A DNA stretch of 32,478 nucleotides from an uncultured Streptococcus sp. GTDB lineage: Bacteria > Bacillota > Bacilli > Lactobacillales > Streptococcaceae. The notes under the pieces are model-generated. The model was not told the DNA's origin. It saw nothing but the letters and a program-made list of their open reading frames with translations, and did not search any database. The position numbers and the translations under genes are program-made. Below are positions 22,260 through 32,478 of this stretch, in pieces. The stretch's first letter is position 1; each line of letters opens with the position of its first letter. The stretch covers positions 1 through 32,478 of the forward strand of contig CAUVQK010000001.1 of assembly GCA_963553705.1 (NCBI GenBank). The letters are read 5' to 3'.

Positions 22260-22348
22260 ATTATCATATCATGGATAATCAATGGAGTCTGTACCACCTA
22301 TGTGATAACATAAATGTTACATTCCTTGATTTCATATCACGTTACACG
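22260..22348 (-). promoter_or_regulatory. Probable late promoter region
   Basis: Directly downstream of the ArpU-like gene; GATAAT -10 candidate; upstream TGTAAC/TAACAT repeats and the palindrome TAACATAAATGTTA. Confidence 0.45.
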
Positions 22349-22747
22349 TTAAATTAACGAATCGATGAAGCGAATGGTCCGCATTGTGTTGGCGTGTAAT
22401 CGACGAATATGTCCGTGCGAATATCCTAGCTCCTCTGCTATTGATTCTAGCGTCATGCCATCGATGTACTTCATCTTTAGCAGCCTGCTCTCTACATCGT
22501 CGAACTGCTCAATCAACTCAATGAGTTTCTCCATTTTGGATTTCATATAGTCCAACTCGGTTTTGATTTCTTCAATTCGTCGCTCTAACCCACAGGCTAT
22601 AGAGCCTTTGGTCAGCCTTACGTTTACCAGGTCTCCGGATACCCAGCGGTCCAACTCTGCTTCGCTTTGTTCCAGGTCGAACTCAAGGTAGCCTATTCGC
22701 TTCTTCATCAGCGTGTAGGTATTCAACCATTCGTACAATTCACTCAC
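22349..22747 (-). CDS. Late transcriptional activator (ArpU/RinA-like, sigma region-4-type HTH)
   Basis: Coiled coil then LLKMKYIDGMTLESIAEELGYS..HIRRLH; last early gene before the packaging module. Confidence 0.8.
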   Translation of the reverse strand: MSELYEWLNTYTLMKKRIGYLEFDLEQSEAELDRWVSGDLVNVRLTKGSIACGLERRIEEIKTELDYMKSKMEKLIELIEQFDDVESRLLKMKYIDGMTLESIAEELGYSHGHIRRLHANTMRTIRFIDSLI

Positions 22748-22755
22748 CCCTTTGT

Positions 22756-23244
22756 TTAGAACGGCAAGTCATCTTCTGAAATATCGATTGGATGACCTTC
22801 ATTCATGAATGACGTGCCGGCTCCAAAACTCGCCTGTGCGTTGTTTTGCACTTGAGTGTTGTAATTCGATTGAGCCCGTCCTTGACCTTGCTGGCTATAT
22901 TGTTGTGCTGCTCTATTGTTTGTTGTCTCCTTAGACTCTAGCAATTCGAAGTTGTTGACGACTACTTCTGTGACGTAGACTTTCTGTCCGTGCTTGTTAT
23001 CGTATGATCTGGTCTGTAGTCTTCCGTCGATTGCGATGAGTGACCCCTTGCGAGTCCAGTTGGCTAGATTCTCCGCTGCCTTTCGCCAAATGACGCAGTT
23101 GATAAAGTCTGCTTCTCGTTCACCTTGTTGGTTAGTGAAGTTGCGATTGACTGCTAAGTTAAACGAGCCGGTAGCTGTTCCTGATGCAGTGAATTTCAAT
23201 TCAACATCTCTCGTCAGCCTGCCGACTAATTGGACTGTGTTCAT
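22756..23244 (-). CDS. ssb: Single-stranded DNA-binding protein
   Basis: LVGRLTRD, LAVNRNF, ADFINCVIWRKAAEN, GRLQTRSY, C-terminal DDLPF. Confidence 0.97.
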   Translation of the reverse strand: MNTVQLVGRLTRDVELKFTASGTATGSFNLAVNRNFTNQQGEREADFINCVIWRKAAENLANWTRKGSLIAIDGRLQTRSYDNKHGQKVYVTEVVVNNFELLESKETTNNRAAQQYSQQGQGRAQSNYNTQVQNNAQASFGAGTSFMNEGHPIDISEDDLPF

Positions 23245-23250
23245 TTTCCA

Positions 23251-23469
23251 TCACTCCTCGCTGTAAATTAAATTGGCACATAAGTCTAGCTGTCTTGCTT
23301 CATAAACCAGTTCGTTGTAGCGCCTTGGATTATCGTATGCGTGCTTCATTGCTTTTCGGCGATAGTGCATTGCCTTTTGTTTTAGGAAGGCACTATGCTC
23401 TTTACGCACCTTGGTTTCCAACTTATCGTACACCTGATTCACGCTCCTCGTACTCTTTGAGTCTATCAA
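23251..23469 (-). CDS. Hypothetical protein
   Basis: Fills the gap to ssb; start uncertain (may be a downstream GTG). Confidence 0.6.
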   Translation of the reverse strand: MIDSKSTRSVNQVYDKLETKVRKEHSAFLKQKAMHYRRKAMKHAYDNPRRYNELVYEARQLDLCANLIYSEE

Positions 23470-23947
23470 TACAATAGCTAGCCTTGTCCAAATCTTCAGT
23501 GCCGTTCTTGTCTTGGTACCTGTGCAGGTATTTGTAGATGTGAGATTTCATAATGGCTCTGAATTCGTCGAATGGAAACTCATGATACCAACCTTCGAAT
23601 AGATCATGTGCACCTTGGCGATAATGTGCAGGTCTAATAGCATCTGTCGTTGGAACAATCGTGGCTACAACCTCTTCTGTGTATAGCGCAGGTGACTCCT
23701 GTTCTTCCGTCGGTTCCTCGATTGGCTCGAATACCAACTTACCTTTCTTGTTGCAGTCCTTGCATGTCTTGCGATAGTTTCCACCTCTGACACGTTGGAA
23801 CTTGTTGACTGACAACTCTTTGCCGCAGCATTTGCATGTTTTAGTTTGATTGCTTTCTTCTGGTTCTTTGATTTCTTCGATGCCGTCATTTGGATTGGCA
23901 TAGACTAGCTTTCCTTTATCTTCCAGGACAGCAATCTTACCTTGCAT
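23423..23947 (-). CDS. Zinc-finger plus DUF3310-like protein (5' end apparently frameshifted)
   Basis: CKCC...CKDC zinc motif; PAHY..G...KYL.RY..KNG.EDL.KA..CI.RL is DUF3310-like. The good RBS/ATG at 24008 is out of frame. Confidence 0.75.
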   Translation of the reverse strand: MQGKIAVLEDKGKLVYANPNDGIEEIKEPEESNQTKTCKCCGKELSVNKFQRVRGGNYRKTCKDCNKKGKLVFEPIEEPTEEQESPALYTEEVVATIVPTTDAIRPAHYRQGAHDLFEGWYHEFPFDEFRAIMKSHIYKYLHRYQDKNGTEDLDKASYCIDRLKEYEERESGVR

Positions 23948-24007
23948 GCGGAGGAACTTGCCTTGTTTATATCCAATCTTGTAGGTCCGTTACCTTTAGC
24001 TTTCTCA

Positions 24008-24244
24008 TTACAAGCCCTCCTTCAACTCTTCCATTAGATCAGGTCGGAAGCCGAACCAATGTCTTTTCTTATCAACATAGACAACTGGTAGATTTTGATA
24101 TCCTAGTTGAATTACCCTGTTGACATAACGTTCATTCTTTGTGACGTCATAGGCGTTGTAGGGAATGCCATTTTCATGCAACCAACGCTTGGTGAATTCA
24201 CACTGCATGCAGTTTGGTTTAGAGTATACAATTACCTCATTCAT
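24008..24244 (-). CDS. nrdH: Glutaredoxin-like NrdH-redoxin
   Basis: VIVYSKPNCMQC..TK, LGY..LPVV, W.GFRPD. Confidence 0.88.
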   Translation of the reverse strand: MNEVIVYSKPNCMQCEFTKRWLHENGIPYNAYDVTKNERYVNRVIQLGYQNLPVVYVDKKRHWFGFRPDLMEELKEGL

Positions 24245-24536
24245 TTTTAACGAACACTCCATTCTGAACGTGACCTGTTCTGTCTTTAATTTCTTCGTAG
24301 GCAGATTCTAAGCACTGCACTAGGTCTAAACCTCGCTGGAGGCAGTATCCGATTAAGACCACTGTGATGTCGCCAACTGCGTCAACTTCTTCCTTGAAGT
24401 CATTAGCTGCGTGTGCAGCTTCTAACTCATCGACTTCTTCCTTCAACTTTTTGATTTGTCCAAGTCCATCTCCTACTGCGATGTCTCGATTCTCAAACCA
24501 TTTATTTACTTTGTTGATTAGTTTTTCCATTTCCAT
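24237..24536 (-). CDS. MazG-like nucleotide pyrophosphohydrolase
   Basis: Q..KL.EEV.EL, DAVGDI.VVL, CL..AYEEIKDRTG...NGVFVK. Confidence 0.85.
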   Translation of the reverse strand: MEMEKLINKVNKWFENRDIAVGDGLGQIKKLKEEVDELEAAHAANDFKEEVDAVGDITVVLIGYCLQRGLDLVQCLESAYEEIKDRTGHVQNGVFVKNE

Positions 24537-24541
24537 TATTC

Positions 24542-24715
24542 TTAACGCCCTTTCTTAATTTTTTCATGAATTTCATCCAATGACTCTTTTACCCATATCG
24601 AATCGCAAGCGAATGTGATTTTAGTTTTCCCATTTCCTAGATCTTCCATATACATAACCGAGTTCAAATTGATAGCTACCTCGATTTCATTTGTTCTTGT
24701 TAAGTAAATAATCAT
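24542..24715 (-). CDS. 57-aa protein resembling the FlbD/SwrD family (not in ORF track)
   Basis: MIIYLTRTNEIEVAINLNSVMYMEDLGNGKTKITFACDSIWVKESLDEIHEKIKKGR; ATGA overlap with the YopX stop and an RBS upstream. Confidence 0.7.
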   Translation of the reverse strand: MIIYLTRTNEIEVAINLNSVMYMEDLGNGKTKITFACDSIWVKESLDEIHEKIKKGR

Positions 24716-25200
24716 TTTCCTGCACCTTCCAATAGGTTTTTGTTCTGATAGATATTCCCAACAATTTTGAAGTTACTAGGTCTCGAAAGGAATTTACTCA
24801 ATTCATTGCCATTTTCGTCTAAACACTCTCTTATTAGAGACACATATTCCTCGGACTCCTGGCCACCGTGTTTGTAATCTTCCAAGCTCCACTCTAGGTT
24901 CCTTCTGTGGAGCACTGCTAAGTTTTTGATGCTGGTTTCTCCACCGGTTACTTCATTGGTTTCTCCGAATGACTCATCTTCATACATGATTGTGTCATCG
25001 AACTCGATGATGTCGCCCTCAAATACCTCTGTACCGGTCATGTCCTTATATCCTGTGCCATGAATAATCTCAACCTCACTGAGTGGACAAGGTACCAAGA
25101 ACCCAGTACCAAGGAAAATCATTTCCCTGGTGTAGTCAATTGATTTCACATCGTGTATCCATTTCTTTTGAATGTGCCACGCTCTGAATTTTTGTATCAT
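24712..25200 (-). CDS. YopX-family protein
   Basis: MIQKFRAW, TG.KD..G.EVFEGDI, IVGNIYQN..LL; start at 25200 with GGAGG RBS. Confidence 0.88.
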   Translation of the reverse strand: MIQKFRAWHIQKKWIHDVKSIDYTREMIFLGTGFLVPCPLSEVEIIHGTGYKDMTGTEVFEGDIIEFDDTIMYEDESFGETNEVTGGETSIKNLAVLHRRNLEWSLEDYKHGGQESEEYVSLIRECLDENGNELSKFLSRPSNFKIVGNIYQNKNLLEGAGK

Positions 25201-25433
25201 TCCACTACCTCCATTTCCATGATCGCTGCCATTGTGAACGATCTGTCTCCATACTTGCAATACTCATACTCATTATGACTTGTAGCTTCCCTTTCTTTCG
25301 AGAACCCTTCAGATAACAACCATTTATGCGCCGATTCGCGAGTATTGAATACCTTGCAGTATACATCGTAATCGGAATCATCTTGACCTTCGGTGCTATA
25401 CCATTTGATAGCGTACATAGATTGTTTCATCAC
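25197..25433 (-). CDS. Hypothetical protein
   Basis: 78-aa ORF translationally coupled to YopX. Confidence 0.7.
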   Translation of the reverse strand: MMKQSMYAIKWYSTEGQDDSDYDVYCKVFNTRESAHKWLLSEGFSKEREATSHNEYEYCKYGDRSFTMAAIMEMEVVE

Positions 25434-25442
25434 TCATCGCCC

Positions 25443-25781
25443 TCACTTAACCATTTTCAGCAGTGCCATCACCGCGCCATATTCTGGTGACATAACTCTA
25501 GTGATACCGTCGTACATGGCAAATAGTCCGAGTACGATTGGTATAATCAATGGAACTAAAAACAAAACCCATTCAGAATACAAGTCATCTTTCATATTGG
25601 TCCATAGGACGATAGCAACGATAGCAGAAAACACGAGCGATATAACAGCTAATACGATTTCCGCAACACCATTGATAAAATTGCCACGCACCATAATTTG
25701 AAACGCTTGGCTGGCAATATCCGGAACGCCTTCCATGCCTTTTGTTAACAGGTCTAAAATTTTACTTACTTGAGTATCCAT
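25443..25781 (-). CDS. Hypothetical membrane protein (two transmembrane helices)
   Basis: Two long hydrophobic segments followed by SPEYGA; GGAGG RBS. Confidence 0.75.
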   Translation of the reverse strand: MDTQVSKILDLLTKGMEGVPDIASQAFQIMVRGNFINGVAEIVLAVISLVFSAIVAIVLWTNMKDDLYSEWVLFLVPLIIPIVLGLFAMYDGITRVMSPEYGAVMALLKMVK

Positions 25782-25783
25782 TA

Positions 25784-26281
25784 CTATTCACCCTCCACAA
25801 TATAAAGTTCCCAATTGACTTTTAAATGTCTCATGACTCTTATAGCCTTCGACTCTGAAAACCGTGTTGCTTTATCGAAATCGGTTGTAAATTGGTATGC
25901 GTATCCGTCGTTTCCCTGTGTTTGGAGCACGAAATACTTTTGGCCTCTACCAAGAGGTGTTACAGAGCCTATCACATATTGCTTTTCTCTCAAGACTCTG
26001 TACCCAAATCGAATTATGTCGGTCATTACTAGATTTTTAGCTGGTCCAAGTCGACTGAACCAACACCAAACGTCATTTGGCATTTTCGTTTCGGTATGAA
26101 GACTCATTAAGTTGTATATTTCCAATTCATTCAACTTTTCAAACCAATCTGATACATAACTTGGTACTGAAGGCTTGAGTGACTCCAAGTAAGTTATGGC
26201 TTGTTGCGTATCTTCGATTTCTATGTCGCTTTCTGGGACAATGTCATTTAAGACCTCGATTACTTTGTCTAATTCTCTCAT
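25784..26281 (-). CDS. DUF1642-like phage protein
   Basis: P.VP.YV.DW.E, GY.V..EK.Y, ATRF.E motifs. Confidence 0.7.
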   Translation of the reverse strand: MRELDKVIEVLNDIVPESDIEIEDTQQAITYLESLKPSVPSYVSDWFEKLNELEIYNLMSLHTETKMPNDVWCWFSRLGPAKNLVMTDIIRFGYRVLREKQYVIGSVTPLGRGQKYFVLQTQGNDGYAYQFTTDFDKATRFSESKAIRVMRHLKVNWELYIVEGE

Positions 26282-26287
26282 CGATTG

Positions 26288-26410
26288 TCATCCTCTCTTC
26301 TCGTTGTCGTTGTAGTCCGACTCTTCATTGTCTCGTCTATCGATTCGATAGTCTGTCAGTAGTAATGCCAGGGCTATCAAGCCTGCGGTTAAAGCTAGCG
26401 TGATGATCAT
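26288..26410 (-). CDS. 40-aa single-pass membrane peptide (not in ORF track)
   Basis: GGAGGT RBS; MIITLALTAGLIALALLLTDYRIDRRDNEESDYNDNEKRG; fills the intergenic gap. Confidence 0.65.
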   Translation of the reverse strand: MIITLALTAGLIALALLLTDYRIDRRDNEESDYNDNEKRG

Positions 26411-26411
26411 G

Positions 26412-26708
26412 TTAATGACCTCCTTCGTTGACTGTGATGTAACATTCCATCTTGCCATCTTCGTTCTCGTAGCAATAGCGCCGATGGACTTCTGGATACT
26501 TATCGTCTCCTACCTTCCAAGTGTTGATAAGGACCGGCTTACCTTTGGCGGACTTGACCTTCTCGCGTTGAATTTTGGCCATGGACATACTCTCATTGGC
26601 AGGAGGTTGGCCACTCGGTCTCGGATTAATGAATGCTAGTGGAATCCACCAAAATGAGCAAATGAGTATTGCTAGAATCATCGATAGCTTCTTGAGTTGC
26701 GTTCTCAT
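26412..26708 (-). CDS. Hypothetical protein with N-terminal membrane anchor/signal peptide
   Basis: Basic N-terminus, hydrophobic stretch, then soluble domain. Confidence 0.7.
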   Translation of the reverse strand: MRTQLKKLSMILAILICSFWWIPLAFINPRPSGQPPANESMSMAKIQREKVKSAKGKPVLINTWKVGDDKYPEVHRRYCYENEDGKMECYITVNEGGH

Positions 26709-26710
26709 AT

Positions 26711-27109
26711 CTACACCCCCAAAGCTGACATCTTGAGATTACGAATTACTGCCTGACTGCGTCTGATTTGCGCTTCGTAGGCAGCAATAGTGGCTTGGCG
26801 CTCTGCCTCTGATACGATGACAAAATATCCACCTGACTGATTCCGTATGGCGCCGATTGGATACTTCTTTGCTCTTAGCGACTCGACTAGCTCGCAGAAA
26901 TCTCTTCGATTTAAGCCGGTTTCTGCTTTGAGTTGAGCGTGAGTCTTCGCATTCTCTGCGCCAATTGGCAAATGGTTCAGTAGGTGTGCCTCTCTGTCGG
27001 TCAGTGGCTCTCGCTTAGACATCCAACTTGGCACGACTTCTGATACTCGTTCGCCTGGTTGAGATAGGCCCCACAAATCCTCGGTAGTGTAATCTGACAT
27101 GTTAATCAT
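26711..27109 (-). CDS. Winged-HTH phage protein
   Basis: LPIG.ENA.T...L....GL..R....LVE.LR...YPIGA.R...GGYF. Confidence 0.75.
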   Translation of the reverse strand: MINMSDYTTEDLWGLSQPGERVSEVVPSWMSKREPLTDREAHLLNHLPIGAENAKTHAQLKAETGLNRRDFCELVESLRAKKYPIGAIRNQSGGYFVIVSEAERQATIAAYEAQIRRSQAVIRNLKMSALGV

Positions 27110-28007
27110 CCTTTCGTCTGTTGTTTCCGCCCATTTGGACTTCTGTCATTAGCTTTGTCAGGCGCTCCTCTAATCGAGTTGCGTCCATCGGAATGACGTC
27201 CTTGCCTTGGCGTACTTGGTTGATGTAGTCCATGATGGTTAGGTTGCTGGTAACAAAAGTCGGTAGCTTGTTGTTCATCCGGTAGTCAAAGATGTCGTAG
27301 ATGACCGTCTTGAGCGACCAGTTTGTGATGGTCTCGGTTCCTAGATCATCGAAAATGAGGACCTCACTATTGGTCTTAATGTTCCGTAGGAAGCTATCCA
27401 GGTCTGCACTGTTGTACTTGATTTTCTCGTGGCAGTCCTTGATGAGTTGATTCATGCTCAGGAAGCGGACCGAAATATTTTTAGCAACTAGGCGGTTGGT
27501 GAAGGCGCCCATCAGGTGAGTCTTCCCGATACCCATGGCGCCTACCAACCACATGCCTTTGCTGTACTGGCCTTGGCTATATGCATCGATGAATCGTTTG
27601 ATGTAGGCGTAGGCCTTAGCGTTGTATAAATCCTGGTCTTCCTTGCCGACTGTGGCATCTCTGAATGACTCGGTCGTGGCATCGTAATGTGCCTTAGCAA
27701 CCATGCTATGTCCAGACATCAGTCGGAATGCCAATCGCTCGTTTCGTGGGATGTACTCGACCATGATGTTGTGATCATAAATCTTAAGATTAGCTGAATA
27801 CCATTCGTCCGTGTCGCGGACCTTGATATACTCACGAAATCTTGGCAGATTTCGTTGAATAAAGTCTGCGTCCTCAGCTAAATCGTACTGCTCTAGGAAC
27901 ATCCGAACATCAATGTCCTCTAGCGTGCGCTTGGCTGCTTCCTTGGCTTTCTCGATAATGTGAGGAGGCATCTTGGCGAATAGGCCGCTAAAATCTAGCT
28001 CATTCAA
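27102..28007 (-). CDS. Helicase loader ATPase (DnaI/DnaC/IstB-like)
   Basis: GAMGIGKT Walker A, VLIFDDLGTE Walker B, YRMNNKLPTFVTSN, RL.ERL, G.NRR. Confidence 0.9.
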   Translation of the reverse strand: MNELDFSGLFAKMPPHIIEKAKEAAKRTLEDIDVRMFLEQYDLAEDADFIQRNLPRFREYIKVRDTDEWYSANLKIYDHNIMVEYIPRNERLAFRLMSGHSMVAKAHYDATTESFRDATVGKEDQDLYNAKAYAYIKRFIDAYSQGQYSKGMWLVGAMGIGKTHLMGAFTNRLVAKNISVRFLSMNQLIKDCHEKIKYNSADLDSFLRNIKTNSEVLIFDDLGTETITNWSLKTVIYDIFDYRMNNKLPTFVTSNLTIMDYINQVRQGKDVIPMDATRLEERLTKLMTEVQMGGNNRRKDD

Positions 28008-28780
28008 AATGGCTCACCTCCGCTGGCTTTCAATTCTTCAAGCGCAGCTAAGTCATCAGCTGATGGCTGATACTCAACCGGCTTAATTGGTCCTTGGCCT
28101 TTGGGCTCTGGTAGTTCATCGTTCCACCTTTCTTGATTGAACCAGGTACTGCCATGTGCGATGTACTTAGCTTCTGTCTTGTTGGCTTGGATGTGTCGCT
28201 TGTATCTGTACACTCCCTCCAGAATTTTGCTTGGGTCAGTACCATTAGCTATAGCCTTATTGTATGCAGCTAACGCTTTGGTTTTCCCTTGCTTATTCGG
28301 GTACTCATTCCAGATGGTCTCGAACATGTCGTTTTGGTACGAAATCGACATATTATTATTCTTAATTGTATTTCTATATATTGTATTTCTCTCTTGGTCG
28401 TTTTCGACCATAGGGGGGTAGTCGTTTTCGACCATACCCTCTGGTCGTTTTCGACCATAGGTATAGTCGTTTTCGACCATAGGGTAATTGAACTTTTTAA
28501 CTAGCTTGATTGAACGTTTTTCAATCTTCTTTTGCTCGTTCCTAAAAATCTTTACTTGGATGTACCCTTTGATTACCAGGCTAGAGATTATCTTCGAGAT
28601 TCTCCCTTTGCTTAAGCCAAACAGGTCTGCAAAATGTTGGTTCCCTGCATAGCAACCTTGCTCGTTATCAAGACTGTCAATCTCGACTAACATAACGCGC
28701 TCGATTAGGCTTAGGTTACGGTCAAACCAAATTTCTTTAGGTATCCAAATACCTTTAAAGCTTCTTTGTTCCATGTTCAT
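28004..28780 (-). CDS. Phage replication initiator (N-terminal wHTH)
   Basis: FKGIWIPKEIW, IDSLD...GCYA.N..FA..FG.S, FE.IW..YP.K.GK..A, STWFNQERW.DE; contains iterons. Confidence 0.9.
   Translation of the reverse strand: MNMEQRSFKGIWIPKEIWFDRNLSLIERVMLVEIDSLDNEQGCYAGNQHFADLFGLSKGRISKIISSLVIKGYIQVKIFRNEQKKIEKRSIKLVKKFNYPMVENDYTYGRKRPEGMVENDYPPMVENDQERNTIYRNTIKNNNMSISYQNDMFETIWNEYPNKQGKTKALAAYNKAIANGTDPSKILEGVYRYKRHIQANKTEAKYIAHGSTWFNQERWNDELPEPKGQGPIKPVEYQPSADDLAALEELKASGGEPF
28397..28481. repeat. Four iterons (GTCGTTTTCGACCATA), probable replication origin
   Basis: Exact 16-mers at 28397, 28421, 28444 and 28466 inside the initiator gene, next to an AT-rich tract (~28350-28392). Confidence 0.88.
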
Positions 28781-28784
28781 TCAC

Positions 28785-28982
28785 CTACTTAACCGCTATC
28801 CAATCATCTGCCAGAATGTCATCCTTGGATGGATTCCAAGAGTTCATCCGGCTAGCTGGCATGATAACTACAAAGCCTTGTACTTCGTCAGTTGGGAGTA
28901 GCTTTACTGGTTGGTCCCACGACGCTCGCTTGATGTAGCTATGGTCATCGGTGATGCTTCGTATTGCTTCAATAATCGTCAT
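28785..28982 (-). CDS. DUF2829 / Thoeris anti-defence Tad2-like protein
   Basis: M.I.EAI.......I.R.SW...WNPS.DDILADDW; ATG at 28982 after AGGAG. Confidence 0.75.
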   Translation of the reverse strand: MTIIEAIRSITDDHSYIKRASWDQPVKLLPTDEVQGFVVIMPASRMNSWNPSKDDILADDWIAVK

Positions 28983-29016
28983 TTTTAACACTCCTATGTA
29001 CAAAATTAGTTATGTG

Positions 29017-29079
29017 TGCTAAAATAGACACATATAAGTTTTGTGAGTCGATTTGAGTTGCCGCTCTATCGACTTTTTT
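29017..29079 (+). ncRNA. Candidate small antisense transcription unit (extended -10 plus terminator)
   Basis: TGcTAAAAT at 29017-29025; hairpin AGTCGAT..GAG-TTGCCG-CTC.ATCGACT plus T run ending at 29079. Confidence 0.5.
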
Positions 29080-29263
29080 GTTTGTCCCAAACTGCTTTTG
29101 TGCATACATACATGCCACTTTCTGTGTAATAAGCATCTCTTGCTGCCTGCATAGTCAGTTCTTCGGTTGGGTCAAACCCCTCTGCATATAATGCGTGGCG
29201 AACTGTTGCCACGGCCCTTGCTTGGGCTTCGTCACTTAATTGGTCAAATTCATACATTTCCAT
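29066..29263 (-). CDS. Hypothetical protein
   Basis: 65-aa ORF with GGAGG RBS. Confidence 0.7.
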   Translation of the reverse strand: MEMYEFDQLSDEAQARAVATVRHALYAEGFDPTEELTMQAARDAYYTESGMYVCTKAVWDKQKSR

Positions 29264-29273
29264 TTCCTGCCTC

Positions 29274-29471
29274 CTAATAAAATTTGATGATGTCTCTGAT
29301 AATGGCCATCGCCTTCTCGCTTCTGTCTCTGCCTGCTAGAATCTCGTCTAGCTGATTGACAGTAAGTCCAAATTGTTCGGCAACCATGGCCGTTGTTAGG
29401 CCGAGTTTGTACATGGCAAAGTGCACATTAGCGGTGAAGCTTGCCATTGATGTATTAGCGCTTATCTTCAT
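29274..29471 (-). CDS. Small XRE/Cro-like HTH protein
   Basis: GLT...VAEQFGLT.NQL.EIL.GR. Confidence 0.65.
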   Translation of the reverse strand: MKISANTSMASFTANVHFAMYKLGLTTAMVAEQFGLTVNQLDEILAGRDRSEKAMAIIRDIIKFY

Positions 29472-29649
29472 TTTTCAGCCAATCTTCCTCTAGACCACAA
29501 ATGACCATGGATGCAAGCATTAACGCGATTGCGATAGCATTGACATCACCGTCACCGCCTGGTTTGCCGATTAGCATAGCTGCCAACAGCATCCATACAA
29601 AACAAGCAATCATGATGGCAATCATCAGCCAAATATGTAAATGTCTCAT
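29455..29649 (-). CDS. Small membrane protein (two transmembrane helices)
   Basis: GGAGGAG RBS; two hydrophobic segments. Confidence 0.65.
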   Translation of the reverse strand: MRHLHIWLMIAIMIACFVWMLLAAMLIGKPGGDGDVNAIAIALMLASMVICGLEEDWLKNEDKR

Positions 29650-29659
29650 GATACTCCTC

Positions 29660-29938
29660 CTAGATCTGCACGAGTGTTTTGGCAGGGTTGTTGGCCCACC
29701 AATCTCTAAATCGACGCTTAAAGATTCGGTAGCGACCGCCCTGACTTGTCGGATAGATGCACCAACCAGTTGACGGGTTTCTAACTACCTCAATCTCACG
29801 ACGGTTCTGTGCCAAAATCTTGATTAGTGTAGATCGTCCAACCGAAACCAGTTTAAGTGCCTGGTCGATGGTGAGTTCTTCTGTGTCTTCGTCTTCTAAT
29901 CGTCGCTCTAACAACGATAGACGCTCTTCAATCGTCAT
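29660..29938 (-). CDS. Excisionase-like/DUF771-like DNA-binding protein
   Basis: LTI.QA....SVGRSTL HTH; GW..YP...G.RY.......F..W. Confidence 0.65.
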   Translation of the reverse strand: MTIEERLSLLERRLEDEDTEELTIDQALKLVSVGRSTLIKILAQNRREIEVVRNPSTGWCIYPTSQGGRYRIFKRRFRDWWANNPAKTLVQI

Positions 29939-29940
29939 AG

Positions 29941-30123
29941 CTATTCATCCTCCAGTACATCTTTTAGGATTTCTTCGATTTGGTTGATACGCTCTGGTGT
30001 TTGGCGTCGGCCTTTTAGGAGGTCTCCCACATAGACGCGTGATACACCCATTTGTCGGGCCAACCATGCGGCCGACTTTCCTTTTTTGACTAGTGCGATT
30101 CGTACTCGCTTTTCAAATAACAT
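29941..30123 (-). CDS. Cro-like XRE HTH protein
   Basis: LARQMGVSRVYVGDLLKGRR. Confidence 0.85.
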   Translation of the reverse strand: MLFEKRVRIALVKKGKSAAWLARQMGVSRVYVGDLLKGRRQTPERINQIEEILKDVLEDE

Positions 30124-30124
30124 G

Positions 30125-30337
30125 CTAACTCTCCTCCCTGAAATAGTTGATATCCACGTTAAAAGCGTCAGATAATTTGCATATTAGTTCAAAACTAGGT
30201 TTTTTTACTTTGCCATTCCGTATTGCTGGCAATAATGAAGTGCTGATATTTGCTCTTCTTGCCACTTCTGCCTTGGTTAGCTCAGTTTTGTCCAATAACT
30301 CGCTTATTTTGTTCCACAATATATTGTGTTTACACAT
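30125..30337 (-). CDS. XRE-family HTH protein
   Basis: EVARRANIS.S.L..IRNGK.KKPSFE.I.KLSDAFNV.I.YF; ATG at 30337 after AAGGAG. Confidence 0.88.
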   Translation of the reverse strand: MCKHNILWNKISELLDKTELTKAEVARRANISTSLLPAIRNGKVKKPSFELICKLSDAFNVDINYFREES

Positions 30338-30403
30338 TGTTTTCAACTCCTTACGCACAACATGTAGGGTTGTAATGTTGACTCACAACTCAATATGTTA
30401 TAC
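30314..30403. promoter_or_regulatory. Tandem NrdR-box-like palindromes
   Basis: cCACAATATATTGTGt (30314-30329), gCACAACATGTAGGGt (30355-30370) and weaker aCTCAATATGTTATAc (30388-30403), compared with consensus acaCwAtATaTwGtgt. Confidence 0.6.
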
Positions 30404-30406
30404 ACT
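30378..30406 (+). promoter_or_regulatory. sigmaA promoter for the 103-aa + strand gene
   Basis: TTGACT-17 bp-TACACT. Confidence 0.6.
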
Positions 30407-30478
30407 TAATATGTCTTCATCATCATTACCTTCTACTTCGATGTTTAGACACACTCTTAAAAGAAACGAGGTGATATT

Positions 30479-30790
30479 ATGTTTAAGATTACTGGCTTAG
30501 AAGAGCTTGAAAAGCAACTTTCTCAGTTAGAACGGAATGCTAATCGTTTTGATGGCGAGCACACGGTTTCTTTCGATGACCTGTTCACACCGTCATTTAT
30601 GATTAAATACACGAGTTTTGACTCTATTGATGAATTCGTTGAATCTAGCGGTTTTGATTTCCAAAACCAGGAAGAAAATGACGAAAGCTCATTGGATGAA
30701 TTTGTTCGCGAAAATACATCCTTTGATGATTGGCATTCAATGCAAGAGAAAGCTGCTGAACTCTGGGCTCTTAAACGGCTTGGACTCTAG
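30479..30790 (+). CDS. Acidic hypothetical protein, moron-like (opposite strand to the early operon)
   Basis: GAGGTGA RBS and own promoter; LF...FM...T.F.SIDEF...SGF...LDEFV..NT.F..W..M. Confidence 0.8.
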   Translation: MFKITGLEELEKQLSQLERNANRFDGEHTVSFDDLFTPSFMIKYTSFDSIDEFVESSGFDFQNQEENDESSLDEFVRENTSFDDWHSMQEKAAELWALKRLGL

Positions 30791-30911
30791 GCTTAAATGA
30801 TTGAATTTCTTCAATCGTCTCTGTTAACTGTTCGCATTGCTCTTTTGCAGTGTCGAGCAGTTTTTTTAGGTCGTCGATATTTTCAATTTTGATCGTCGTT
30901 GTCAGTTCCAT
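30771..30911 (-). CDS. 46-aa coiled-coil protein (not in ORF track)
   Basis: AAGGAGGTGA RBS; MELTTTIKIENIDDLKKLLDTAKEQCEQLTETIEEIQSFKPRVQAV. Confidence 0.7.
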   Translation of the reverse strand: MELTTTIKIENIDDLKKLLDTAKEQCEQLTETIEEIQSFKPRVQAV

Positions 30912-31074
30912 GCTCTCACCTCCTTCGGATGGTATGTCACTTTATCTTGTAAATTCTTGCTGAATGTTTTAGGTTTCTTGCTGATTTTGTTCCCACCTCT
31001 TCTCCTAACCTCAAGCAGTAGGTATTATGAATCTAGCTGCCTGCTTGCTTGAGGTTGTTGAGGAGGTGAAAAAT

Positions 31075-31263
31075 ATGGAAAAAGAGAACAAGCCTTTTCC
31101 GTCTGATAAGTTAGAAGCTTTGGCGTTGCTTTATGTTGAAAAATCATCTGACTTAAAGAATCTTTCTCCTGAGTCTTTATTAAGTCTGTACAATCTTGCT
31201 TACGATAAACTTCGCAAGGCTGATGCTGAAGAAAAACCAAATCCAATGGGGTACTTTCAGTAG
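31075..31263 (+). CDS. 62-aa hypothetical protein, moron-like
   Basis: GAGGAGGTGA RBS before the ATG at 31075. Confidence 0.7.
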   Translation: MEKENKPFPSDKLEALALLYVEKSSDLKNLSPESLLSLYNLAYDKLRKADAEEKPNPMGYFQ

Positions 31264-31415
31264 AAAATTAGCGTTTTAGCGGTGCTAATCAAATTTGCCA
31301 TTGAGTTTGTTAGATTCGCTAACTTATCAGGGTCTGATGTTTCCTTGGACACATTTTTGAGTAATTCGAGTTGCTCCTTGATGGTGTCCAGGGCTTTTTG
31401 TGTTTCCTTAGTCAT
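31257..31415 (-). CDS. 52-aa helical protein, first gene of the early lytic operon
   Basis: GGAGGGGGTGA RBS before the ATG at 31415. Confidence 0.65.
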   Translation of the reverse strand: MTKETQKALDTIKEQLELLKNVSKETSDPDKLANLTNSMANLISTAKTLIFY

Positions 31416-31467
31416 GCTCTCACCCCCTCCCGGTGGAAAATAATCCATTGAATCAGTTACATTTTTG

Positions 31468-31496
31468 TTGACATCCAATGGAATATCTTACATAAT
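31468..31496 (+). promoter_or_regulatory. Lysogenic (repressor) promoter
   Basis: TTGACA-17 bp-CATAAT, pointing toward the repressor gene. Confidence 0.75.
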
Positions 31497-31609
31497 GTAA
31501 GCATAAGAAATAAGCGCACGTTCTGAAAGCTACCTATCACTGTCTTGGCGGACTCGTTTTCTGGGGCTTCATTTGTGCTGATTTGCTTATCAATTTAGCT
31601 TACAAGGTT

Positions 31610-31638
31610 AGTATAATGGAAATTTTTACATTAGTCAA
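31610..31638 (-). promoter_or_regulatory. Early lytic promoter
   Basis: TTGACT-17 bp-TATACT, pointing toward the early genes. Confidence 0.8.
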
Positions 31639-31693
31639 TAGGTAAATGTAATTTTTTGCATTTTTCTTCCTTGTGTTTAGGGAGATGATTATA

Positions 31694-32104
31694 ATGTCGC
31701 TGTTGCAGAGGGTTAAAGATTTAGTTAACCTGAAGAAAATTACCATTGCGGAATTAGAAAGAGTTACTGGTCTTAGCCAGGGCAGCATACGAAATTGGGA
31801 TAAAACTAGTCCGGGTGTAGATAAGGTGCAGAAGGTTGCTGAGTATTTTAATGTCTCAACGGACTACCTAACCGGACGAACCGAACAACCTTATTATGCC
31901 CTTACCGAAAAAGAAAAGTTGGACATTGGACAGGAGGTAGATCGCCTGCTAGACGGTATGGCTACCAATGCAGAGGTCAACTTTTACGGTGAACCAATGA
32001 CTGACGAAGGTAAGGCTGCGCTTAAGGCGGCTATCCAAATGGCCATGGAGCTTAACAAGCAAAAGGCCAAGCAACACTTCACGCCTAAAAAATACAGAAA
32101 CTGA
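31694..32104 (+). CDS. Prophage repressor (XRE HTH, ImmR-like, no S24 peptidase domain)
   Basis: ITIAELER..GLSQGSI.NW....P..DKVQKVAEYFNVSTDYL.GRT; GGGAG RBS before the ATG at 31694. Confidence 0.9.
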   Translation: MSLLQRVKDLVNLKKITIAELERVTGLSQGSIRNWDKTSPGVDKVQKVAEYFNVSTDYLTGRTEQPYYALTEKEKLDIGQEVDRLLDGMATNAEVNFYGEPMTDEGKAALKAAIQMAMELNKQKAKQHFTPKKYRN

Positions 32105-32118
32105 TTTGAGGTGACGCC

Positions 32119-32478
32119 ATGACAATCGGTGATGAGGTCGACAAGCTATATCGTGCGCATGCAACGTACGATGCGCGTCGCATTGCCAAGGATAAGAAGA
32201 TTGACATACTGGTCATGCCGTTGGACTCCGATACCTGCGGTCTGACGGTCAGAAACAGTCGTTTTAACACTATCATCCTCAATGAGCTGATTGAGGAGAA
32301 TTTACAAGAGTATACACTCTGCCATGAGCTGGGCCACTGCGTCTTGCATAAGCAGGCTAGCACTCCATTCATGCGATCAGTCTCTGTATCGTCATCCATC
32401 ATGCGCATGGAGGCGGAGGCGCATCGCTTTGCCTTTGAGTTGCTCAATAGGCAGTATGCAGAGTTGTCGCTCATGTCT
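32119..32478 (+). CDS. ImmA/IrrE-family metallopeptidase (anti-repressor), truncated by the window end
   Basis: GAGGTGA RBS; MTIGDEVDKLYRAHATYD...CHELGHCVLH...EAEAHRFA (HExxH); absent from the ORF track because it has no stop codon in the window. Confidence 0.9.
   Translation, partial: MTIGDEVDKLYRAHATYDARRIAKDKKIDILVMPLDSDTCGLTVRNSRFNTIILNELIEENLQEYTLCHELGHCVLHKQASTPFMRSVSVSSSIMRMEAEAHRFAFELLNRQYAELSLMS

Follow-up and report, generated by a model that had tools for sequence, protein, structure and literature searches.

In the usual view, NrdR is a repressor that serves the ribonucleotide reductase genes alone. The locus described here raises the question of what paired boxes of the NrdR type are doing at the start of a small XRE-family helix-turn-helix (HTH) gene in a prophage, and which protein reads them. 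The prophage lies on contig CAUVQK010000001.1, of which a stretch of 32,478 nucleotides was analysed (the window, to which coordinates refer unless another locus is named), and a sequence-only reading of this DNA had proposed that the NrdR of the host could operate there. We favour the same answer: with a probability of roughly 0.6, host NrdR, rather than the XRE protein, binds the boxes. The paired sites, which related phages of lactic acid bacteria also carry, suggest that these phages tie part of their early expression to the host supply of deoxynucleoside triphosphates (dNTPs).

Two strong boxes of the NrdR type at the start of the XRE gene

The box region and the two genes that it separates are composed as follows.

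30125-30337, minus strand: XRE-family HTH gene, 70 aa from ATG (Pfam HTH_26 4.4e-9, HTH_3 7.6e-8); first gene downstream of the boxes
30314-30329: box 1 (proximal, NrdR-type), CCACAATATATTGTGT on the plus strand and ACACAATATATTGTGG on the gene strand; within XRE codons 3-8
30330-30354: spacer between the strong boxes, 25 bp, containing the ribosome-binding site (RBS) and the ATG of the XRE gene
30355-30370: box 2 (distal, NrdR-type), GCACAACATGTAGGGT; 2 nt upstream of the AAGGAG RBS
30388-30403: third site (weak), ACTCAATATGTTATAC; 33 bp centre-to-centre from box 2, with a 17-bp spacer
30378-30406, plus strand: promoter-like site TTGACT(30378)-17-TACACT(30406), a consensus match only (9/12), facing the 103-aa gene
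30479-30790, plus strand: divergent 103-aa gene, function unassigned, acidic product (phrog_2211 1.2e-17)

The ATG of the XRE gene occupies 30337-30335 and its RBS, AAGGAG, 30352-30347, both on the minus strand.

The highly conserved bases of the NrdR box are C4, A6, A8, T9, T11 and G13; a mutational study found G13 to be critical, and positions 3, 5, 7, 10 and 14 to be tolerant of change (PMC13584703). NrdR requires two boxes, the best spacer being 15-17 bp, and there is a second affinity optimum at about 24-27 bp, corresponding to one extra helical turn (the 'long' class; PMC12051234).

Box 1 is built around the perfect palindrome CACAATATATTGTG at 30315-30328, which had been placed within the first codons of the XRE gene and which we locate at codons 3-8. 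As a 16-mer, box 1 has a single mismatch to acaCwAtATaTwGtgt and is the sole match of the window with three mismatches or fewer; matches at that level are common by chance, with at least one in 35 of 100 shuffles. All six core bases are present, and the positions between C4 and G13 are A or T throughout (8/8). Box 2 is centred 41 bp away, next to the RBS, just as the sequence-only reading had described; it has four mismatches to the consensus, yet it keeps all six core bases, with A/T at 6/8 positions between C4 and G13. In both strong boxes C4 and G13 lie 8 bp apart and A6/T11, the central A8-T9 and at least 63% A/T between C4 and G13 are found. The 25-bp spacer lies within the accepted range for two boxes (14-17 or 24-27 bp), as does the 17 bp between box 2 and the third site; most Streptococcus nrd promoters natively have boxes spaced in this way, 25-26 bp apart (PMC12051234). 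The third site was correctly called a weaker one over the divergent promoter: it overlaps the promoter-like site at 30378-30406, scores 5.75 bits under the matrix described below (rank 35 in the window) and has, by our own reading, five of the six core bases, with A instead of G13. Judged by any of the sequence criteria published for NrdR, both strong boxes count as NrdR boxes.

To score the boxes we used a weight matrix derived from only 10 NrdR-bound boxes of E. coli and S. coelicolor (PMC13584703 Table 1), with zero phage input. The two strong sites came out first and second among all 16-mers of the window, box 2 with 18.2 bits and box 1 with 16.4 bits. The training boxes reach 11.0-17.7 bits under their own matrix, and the window boxes score as high. 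When the window was pooled with 14 loci (193,683 16-mers), box 2 kept rank 1 and box 1 was within the top 5. The exact tail probabilities are 6e-8 for box 2 and 7.4e-7 for box 1. Synthetic boxes to which NrdR of S. coelicolor and NrdR of E. coli bound at 33-95 nM (PMC13584703 Table 6) differ from the window boxes, in our own comparison, at no more than a few positions, none of them among the six key ones, and NrdR of one phylum is reported to bind the boxes of another (PMC13584703 Table 1). Rfam gave zero matches for the box region, and a search of solved structures returned only a weak match, to an unnamed HTH protein.

Could such a pair arise by chance, or consist of purely structural promoter elements, that is, AT-rich -10-like palindromes with no dedicated binder? 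The box centres TATATT and TATATA do resemble -10 hexamers, some boxes overlap promoter-like sites, and at a lenient threshold of 7 bits a pair occurs in 29 of 300 Markov simulations of the window. However, for pairs as strong as those observed and at allowed spacers the expected number per window is about 1.4e-7, and over the 25 loci described in the next section the C4/G13 flanks are conserved and a second box stands at phased distances, neither of which a bare -10 element needs. This explanation is very improbable. As sequences, the sites are real, they belong to the NrdR type, and their match goes far beyond what chance would give.

The box pair recurs at XRE gene starts in related phages

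Conservation of the boxes was followed across 25 XRE-family loci, all of them selected through the XRE protein: the window, 4 Lactobacillaceae prophage loci and 20 phage records, together covering prophages and phages of Lactobacillaceae, Lactococcus, Streptococcus, Enterococcus and Brochothrix. The phage records come from tblastn searches, which gave 12 records with the XRE protein of the window and 85 with its Brochothrix NF5 homologue (72 of these being Streptococcus phages); 8 of the 12 and 12 of the 85 were taken, the latter picked for host diversity. Scanning genome contigs with the XRE protein yielded relatives of 33-38% identity, namely two Bacillus loci and the 4 prophage loci of Lactobacillaceae, the latter at 36-38%. 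In the Bacillus loci (L005 and L006) the proteins are longer and of another type, and the gene start lacks boxes; these two were rejected as family members and left out of the 25-locus count. Some near-duplicates are included: L011 equals L012 in the region, L016 is close to L019, and L008 and L009 share one box. Close relatives of the XRE protein are few, a protein search having found five, four of them at least 96% identical (without DNA context). At the nucleotide level, a megablast of 29600-32478 against the phage collection gave zero matches, and the sole match of 1-25000 is a terminase (72%).

In 24 of the 25 loci (13/13 and 11/12, the exception being L024), the 16-mer that scores highest under the matrix in the entire locus is found at the XRE start or immediately upstream of it. 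For pairs, 270,089 bases were scanned; each of the two boxes had to reach at least 7 bits, and all spacers between 5 and 40 were admitted. This returned 24 pairs, of which 22 are at the XRE starts of 22 of the 25 loci; the other two are an extra pair in L015 (spacer 36) and a pair at the nrd operon of the Lactococcus plasmid pGdh442, and there are no pairs anywhere else in these bases. The spacers of 23 of the 24 pairs measure 14-17 or 25-27 bp. Three loci were missed by the pair scan; they have one strong box and a weaker partner, at 15 bp in L002, 16 bp in L004 and 26 bp in L026. The sequence-only reading had named conservation of the boxes in homologous cassettes as a check; in these XRE-family loci a full pair stands over the XRE start or a short way upstream in 22, and a strong box with a weaker partner in 3. 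Taken over all 25 loci, the spacers are 14 bp (3 loci), 15 bp (7), 16 bp (6), 17 bp (1), 25 bp (2), 26 bp (4) and 27 bp (2), with none of 18-24 bp; the partner box in L010 is ambiguous. We also considered that the spacer class might track the host, an idea that was rejected: streptococcal prophages mostly have 15-17 bp, whereas most Streptococcus nrd promoters are described with a 25-26 bp spacer (PMC12051234).

The published NrdR regular expression found a pair near the XRE start in 11 of 13 loci, along with about 15 pairs elsewhere in 194 kb; because the expression is this lax, the matrix was used in its place.

Box placement relative to the XRE start varies, the box start ranging from -99 to +8. 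In the window and the closest relatives of its XRE protein, the proximal box itself encodes an N-terminal extension, MCKHN[IM]LW (30314-30337). In L002, L008 and L009 box DNA lies over the start codon and the protein starts MLW; in L002 (9998-10018) this DNA, ACACAATATGTTGTGG, straddles the start codon, and its first bases do not belong to the reading frame. Given the variable placement and this out-of-frame overlap, the boxes are not a coding constraint.

On this sequence evidence the boxes make up a conserved class of paired sites that temperate phages of Lactobacillales and Brochothrix have in common. Among the papers listed in the literature searches, which did not extend to RegPrecise, none was found to describe NrdR boxes in the early regions of phages, and the class is apparently undescribed so far.

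Host NrdR or the XRE protein as the binder

Small HTH proteins frequently bind palindromes over their own promoter, and operators of the phage 434 type carry ACAA/TTGT half-sites. Both facts speak for an alternative that the sequence-only reading had itself raised, namely that the boxes are operators of the adjacent XRE protein, which would repress its own and the divergent promoter, the likeness to NrdR sites being an inherited coincidence of an AT-centred CACAA/TTGTG palindrome. Repeated palindromes at the gene's own promoter or start, as expected of an autoregulator, are indeed present. Boxes and XRE gene occur together in 25 of 25 loci, and a conserved G-K-[IV]-K-K-P-S-F-E-L stretch past the predicted recognition helix could contact DNA. 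Listeria A118 (40.8 kb), which is not among the matches listed, has no pair at an allowed spacer, and it is the sole such phage scanned, too small a sample to carry weight. However, because the loci were picked via the XRE gene, the co-occurrence of boxes and XRE gene cannot decide between NrdR and the XRE protein.

More can be learned from how the boxes behave as the XRE protein changes. The XRE proteins of the family are 31-46% identical to that of the window, and their predicted recognition helices vary (STSLLPAI, RNMTIYAL, SNSVLYSF, RSGDVTDL, STQSLSAI), while the box core is constant: by a hand count of the pair-scan boxes, all six core bases are present in 39 of 44 and five of six in the remaining 5. 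An operator of the XRE protein would be expected to change with the recognition helix among homologues, and this is not what we see. The boxes hold exactly the bases that NrdR needs and vary where NrdR sites vary. Since the recognition helices differ between loci and the core does not, NrdR is favoured as the binder. Three further observations argue in the same direction. A matrix free of phage sequences finds these sites as well as the Lactococcus nrd operator; the distance of 8 bp from C to G is probably short for an HTH dimer, for which a half-site spacing of about 10 bp is usual; and the two spacer classes are one helical turn apart, as reported for NrdR (PMC12051234), although any cooperative binder could phase its sites in this way.

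The claim that these are NrdR-type boxes and not a private XRE operator is strongly supported at the level of sequence, through the independent matrix, the six key bases, the spacer class and the recurrence at 25 loci with a much less conserved XRE protein. Operation by the XRE protein is weakened by the constant core beside variable helices; we retain it as an unlikely explanation.

A further possibility is that both proteins bind. The phage XRE protein would then recognise NrdR boxes and either replace NrdR or compete with it, at the promoter of the XRE gene and possibly also at nrd promoters of the host. Put for the whole family, its small XRE proteins would themselves be NrdR-box binders that occupy host NrdR operators, including their own, and a phage XRE protein competing with host NrdR for the paired boxes would seize ribonucleotide reductase expression during infection. 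It is in keeping with this that the matrix cannot separate the phage boxes from the native Lactococcus nrd operator, that genes of the NrdR regulon are described as by far the most induced host genes early in pneumococcal phage infection (PMC6755750), and that NrdR is among the proteins co-precipitating with a streptococcal phage protein, although the authors warn that many of the hits may be indirect (PMC11754733). However, the variable recognition helices argue against a shared specificity, and the induction of the NrdR regulon is more simply explained by dATP consumption. Dual binding, at this one promoter or as a property of the family, is accordingly a rather improbable proposition.

For control by host NrdR itself, the pneumococcus offers a parallel. 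Infection of S. pneumoniae by phage SpSL1 induced three transcripts described with a preceding NrdR site, nrdDG, nrdHEF and SPD_1594-1595, the induction of ripBA with nrdDG and nrdHEF being reported from 10 min after infection (PMC6755750). SPD_1594-1595 is ripBA, which encodes the XRE-ImmA antitoxin RipB and the toxin RipA (PMC12795458, PMC12211083). By analogy, ripBA may be taken as a precedent, being an operon other than those for the reductase, headed by an XRE gene and under control of the NrdR type.

Several points weigh against host NrdR as the binder. A 25-bp spacer was bound more weakly than 15-16 bp by all four NrdRs reported in PMC12051234: 25 versus 1 nM for L. monocytogenes, 326 versus 82-91 nM for E. 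coli, 4371 versus 41-55 nM for S. pneumoniae and 4051 versus 28-45 nM for S. coelicolor. NrdR is listed as universal in Streptococcaceae and 'mosaic' in Lactobacillaceae, and given this mosaic presence the host may lack it (PMC3616900 Table 2). The target is no ribonucleotide reductase operon: NrdR operators typically lie in the promoter of one, whereas here the next gene is an XRE regulator, and nrdH lies 6 kb downstream on the same strand. The spacer class, as stated above, does not follow the host. No convincing consensus promoter for the window XRE gene was found upstream of the boxes, and no phage box pair without an XRE gene was found, the loci having been chosen via XRE and A118 being the one other phage scanned. 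Finally, the perfect co-occurrence of boxes and XRE gene is equally expected of an autoregulator.

A candidate operator at an internal early promoter

From the match, the spacing and the position of the boxes we infer binding by NrdR, repression and a physiological trigger along the following lines. The segment 30314-30403 would be a tandem operator for host NrdR that has been co-opted by the prophage, with two strong boxes 25 bp apart bracketing the RBS and start codon of the XRE gene and a degenerate third box over the divergent promoter-like site. NrdR on the boxes would block transcription into the XRE-headed early array, with its replication initiator, helicase loader, MazG and nrdH genes, and perhaps likewise that of the divergent 103-aa gene. 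Upon a drop in the dATP/ATP ratio, NrdR would pass into ATP-only oligomers that do not bind DNA, and the module would be released together with the ribonucleotide reductase genes of the host. Blocking in the window could take the form of either promoter occlusion or an elongation block. On these sequence features, dNTP-sensing control of an early phage module appears well founded.

Promoter geometry in related phages is compatible with such an arrangement. The EJ-1 record annotates a rightward extended -10 promoter over and between the boxes, and both in EJ-1 and in an S. pyogenes prophage a leftward TG-TATAAT promoter, which serves the reverse-oriented gene, has a -35 that the distal box overlaps. 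In these two cases one box pair is predicted to cover two divergent promoters, which is the classic repressor layout. The nearest best minus-strand match in the window, TTGAAA-17-TATATT (30346-30318), would start transcription within the XRE gene. As the XRE module is placed after some replication genes in EJ-1, iLp84 and NF5, it is not always at their head, and the description that suits it best is that of an internal early promoter module.

On the other side of the boxes stands, as had been pointed out before, the divergent 103-aa gene, whose product gave zero matches in a Pfam search. This gene varies among phages: phrog_2211 in the window is replaced elsewhere by DUF2188, DUF3892, ribbon-helix-helix or small unnamed proteins, and the divergent position looks like a variable moron slot under the same box pair. 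In the divergent operon of a Lapidilactobacillus prophage (L004, 8686-9249, minus strand) there is a weak match of the nucleoside 2-deoxyribosyltransferase type (PF05014 2.9e-6, slightly below the cut-off), so that here, too, the boxes have a nucleotide-related gene at their side.

A further conserved element, the hairpin GAATAAAG-loop-CTTTATTC, was observed some 40-110 nt upstream of the distal box. It follows closely on the TG-TATAAT promoter of the reverse-oriented gene and is part of that gene's 5' leader. It is present in L007-L009, L011, L013, L015-L018, L021, L022, L025 and L026. Eight pairs are predicted, four of them with compensatory changes. The hairpin has no match in Rfam and no obvious counterpart in the window.

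The prophage around the boxes

The window is a prophage of a low-GC Gram-positive host, with a G+C content of 41-47%; tblastn with its lysin and capsid gave matches of only 30-52%, mostly to Streptococcus phages. The minus strand carries the structural and lysis genes and nearly all early genes. The features that matter for the boxes are listed below.

22300-30123, minus strand: same-strand early gene array downstream of the XRE gene (profile matches)
23423-23947, minus strand: DUF3310 'nucleotide kinase'-type protein
24011-24241, minus strand: nrdH (NrdH redoxin; TIGR02194, 92.7 bits versus a cut-off of 85.75)
24237-24536, minus strand: MazG-like pyrophosphatase
31673-32104, plus strand: cI-like repressor
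from 32119, cut by the window end (32478), plus strand: ImmA-type metalloprotease

Members of the early array include a second small HTH gene, a Tad2-like gene, a replication initiator (phrog_270), a DnaC-like loader, MazG, nrdH and others. The nrdH gene named by the sequence-only reading is real, its score lying above the family cut-off. That reading had also assumed an early transcript which includes nrdH and the replication genes. These genes do lie downstream on the same strand, and a simple scan of 22300-30420 found five terminator-like sites, none of them on the minus strand; a single long leftward transcript from the boxes through the early array is possible.

The MazG-like, NrdH and DUF3310 genes form a nucleotide-related cluster (23423-24536, minus strand), directly ahead of which no NrdR-type pair was found. 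The Tad2-like early gene (72 aa, 28785-29003, minus strand) encodes a domain resembling the Thoeris anti-defence protein Tad2 (PF11195 2.3e-8; phrog_643).

The cI-like and ImmA genes (31673-32478) are the lysogeny switch and lie 1.3 kb from the boxes. Adjoining the cI-like gene, 31434-31667 contains separate direct and inverted repeats of the AATGGAATATCTTACAT type (AATGGAA...TTACAT), and facing promoter-like sites accompany them on the plus strand (31468-31496, 11/12 match) and the minus strand (31638-31610, 10/12 match). These repeats look like the real switch operators, and their sequence has no relation to that of the NrdR-type boxes. A perfect 12-bp inverted repeat, CTGATAAGTTAG (31103-31114) and CTAACTTATCAG (31319-31330) with 204 nt between the arms, sits within and just past a 78-aa plus-strand open reading frame (31027-31263).

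Implications

Many temperate phages, with streptococci, lactococci, enterococci and lactobacilli as hosts, have the paired boxes as a conserved trait of an internal early promoter. If NrdR binds them, these phages would read the dATP/ATP ratio of the host directly, and part of the early programme would be switched on together with the host dNTP supply; in the window this part would comprise the replication genes, the MazG pyrophosphatase, nrdH and the Tad2-like gene. Prophage development would then have a second host-sensed input besides DNA damage sensed through RecA, and it would be understandable why a pneumococcal XRE-headed operon follows the NrdR regulon. Hydroxyurea and nrdR mutants would then offer a simple, testable handle on prophage behaviour in dairy and commensal bacteria.

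Comparison with known systems

The nearest likeness is to the NrdR operators of ribonucleotide reductase genes, such as those of E. coli nrdAB, nrdHIEF and nrdDG, S. coelicolor nrdAB and nrdRJ, S. pneumoniae nrdDG and nrdHEF, and L. monocytogenes nrdAB and nrdDG, as described in PMC13584703 and PMC12051234. Like these, the window site has two 16-bp partly palindromic boxes with six core bases, an AT-rich centre and a spacer of 14-17 or 24-27 bp, placed over or adjoining promoter and start signals, and like S. pneumoniae nrdHEF it has a third, weaker box. Unlike them, it lies in a prophage, the first downstream gene is a phage XRE regulator, and the sole nrd-related gene is nrdH, 6 kb downstream.

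The pneumococcal ripBA operon resembles the window in being a non-reductase operon of the mobile-element type (a Rosmer-type toxin-antitoxin system) that has an XRE-domain gene first and for which an NrdR site is described (PMC6755750, PMC12795458). Compared by these descriptions only, it differs in that RipB is an XRE-ImmA fusion and not a 70-aa stand-alone protein, and in its location on the chromosome, not in a prophage early region.

The nrd operator of the Lactococcus lactis plasmid pGdh442 (NC_009435; L027, 45594-45641) is a positive control for the matrix: it is the sole pair in 50 kb, with boxes of 11.2 and 18.3 bits and a 16-bp spacer, and by eye its boxes are very similar to the ones at L007 and L009, two Lactococcus phage loci. 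In contrast to the window site, it is directly upstream of an nrdE/nrdF operon, with only a DUF1971 gene between, and its spacer is 16 bp and not 25 bp.

Operators of the Cro/cI type, as in lambda, 434 and TP901-1, consist of repeated palindromes between divergent promoters beside a small HTH gene, and this arrangement is also that of the window. However, the window boxes are 1.3 kb from the cI-like gene, which has different repeats of its own, and their sequence stays constant despite a changing recognition helix.

A last comparison is with LexA boxes ahead of phage antirepressor and regulator genes, through which a prophage borrows a stress-sensing repressor of the host for the timing of its genes. 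The logic would be the same at the XRE module, with a sensor that reports the dATP/ATP ratio instead of RecA-activated DNA damage.

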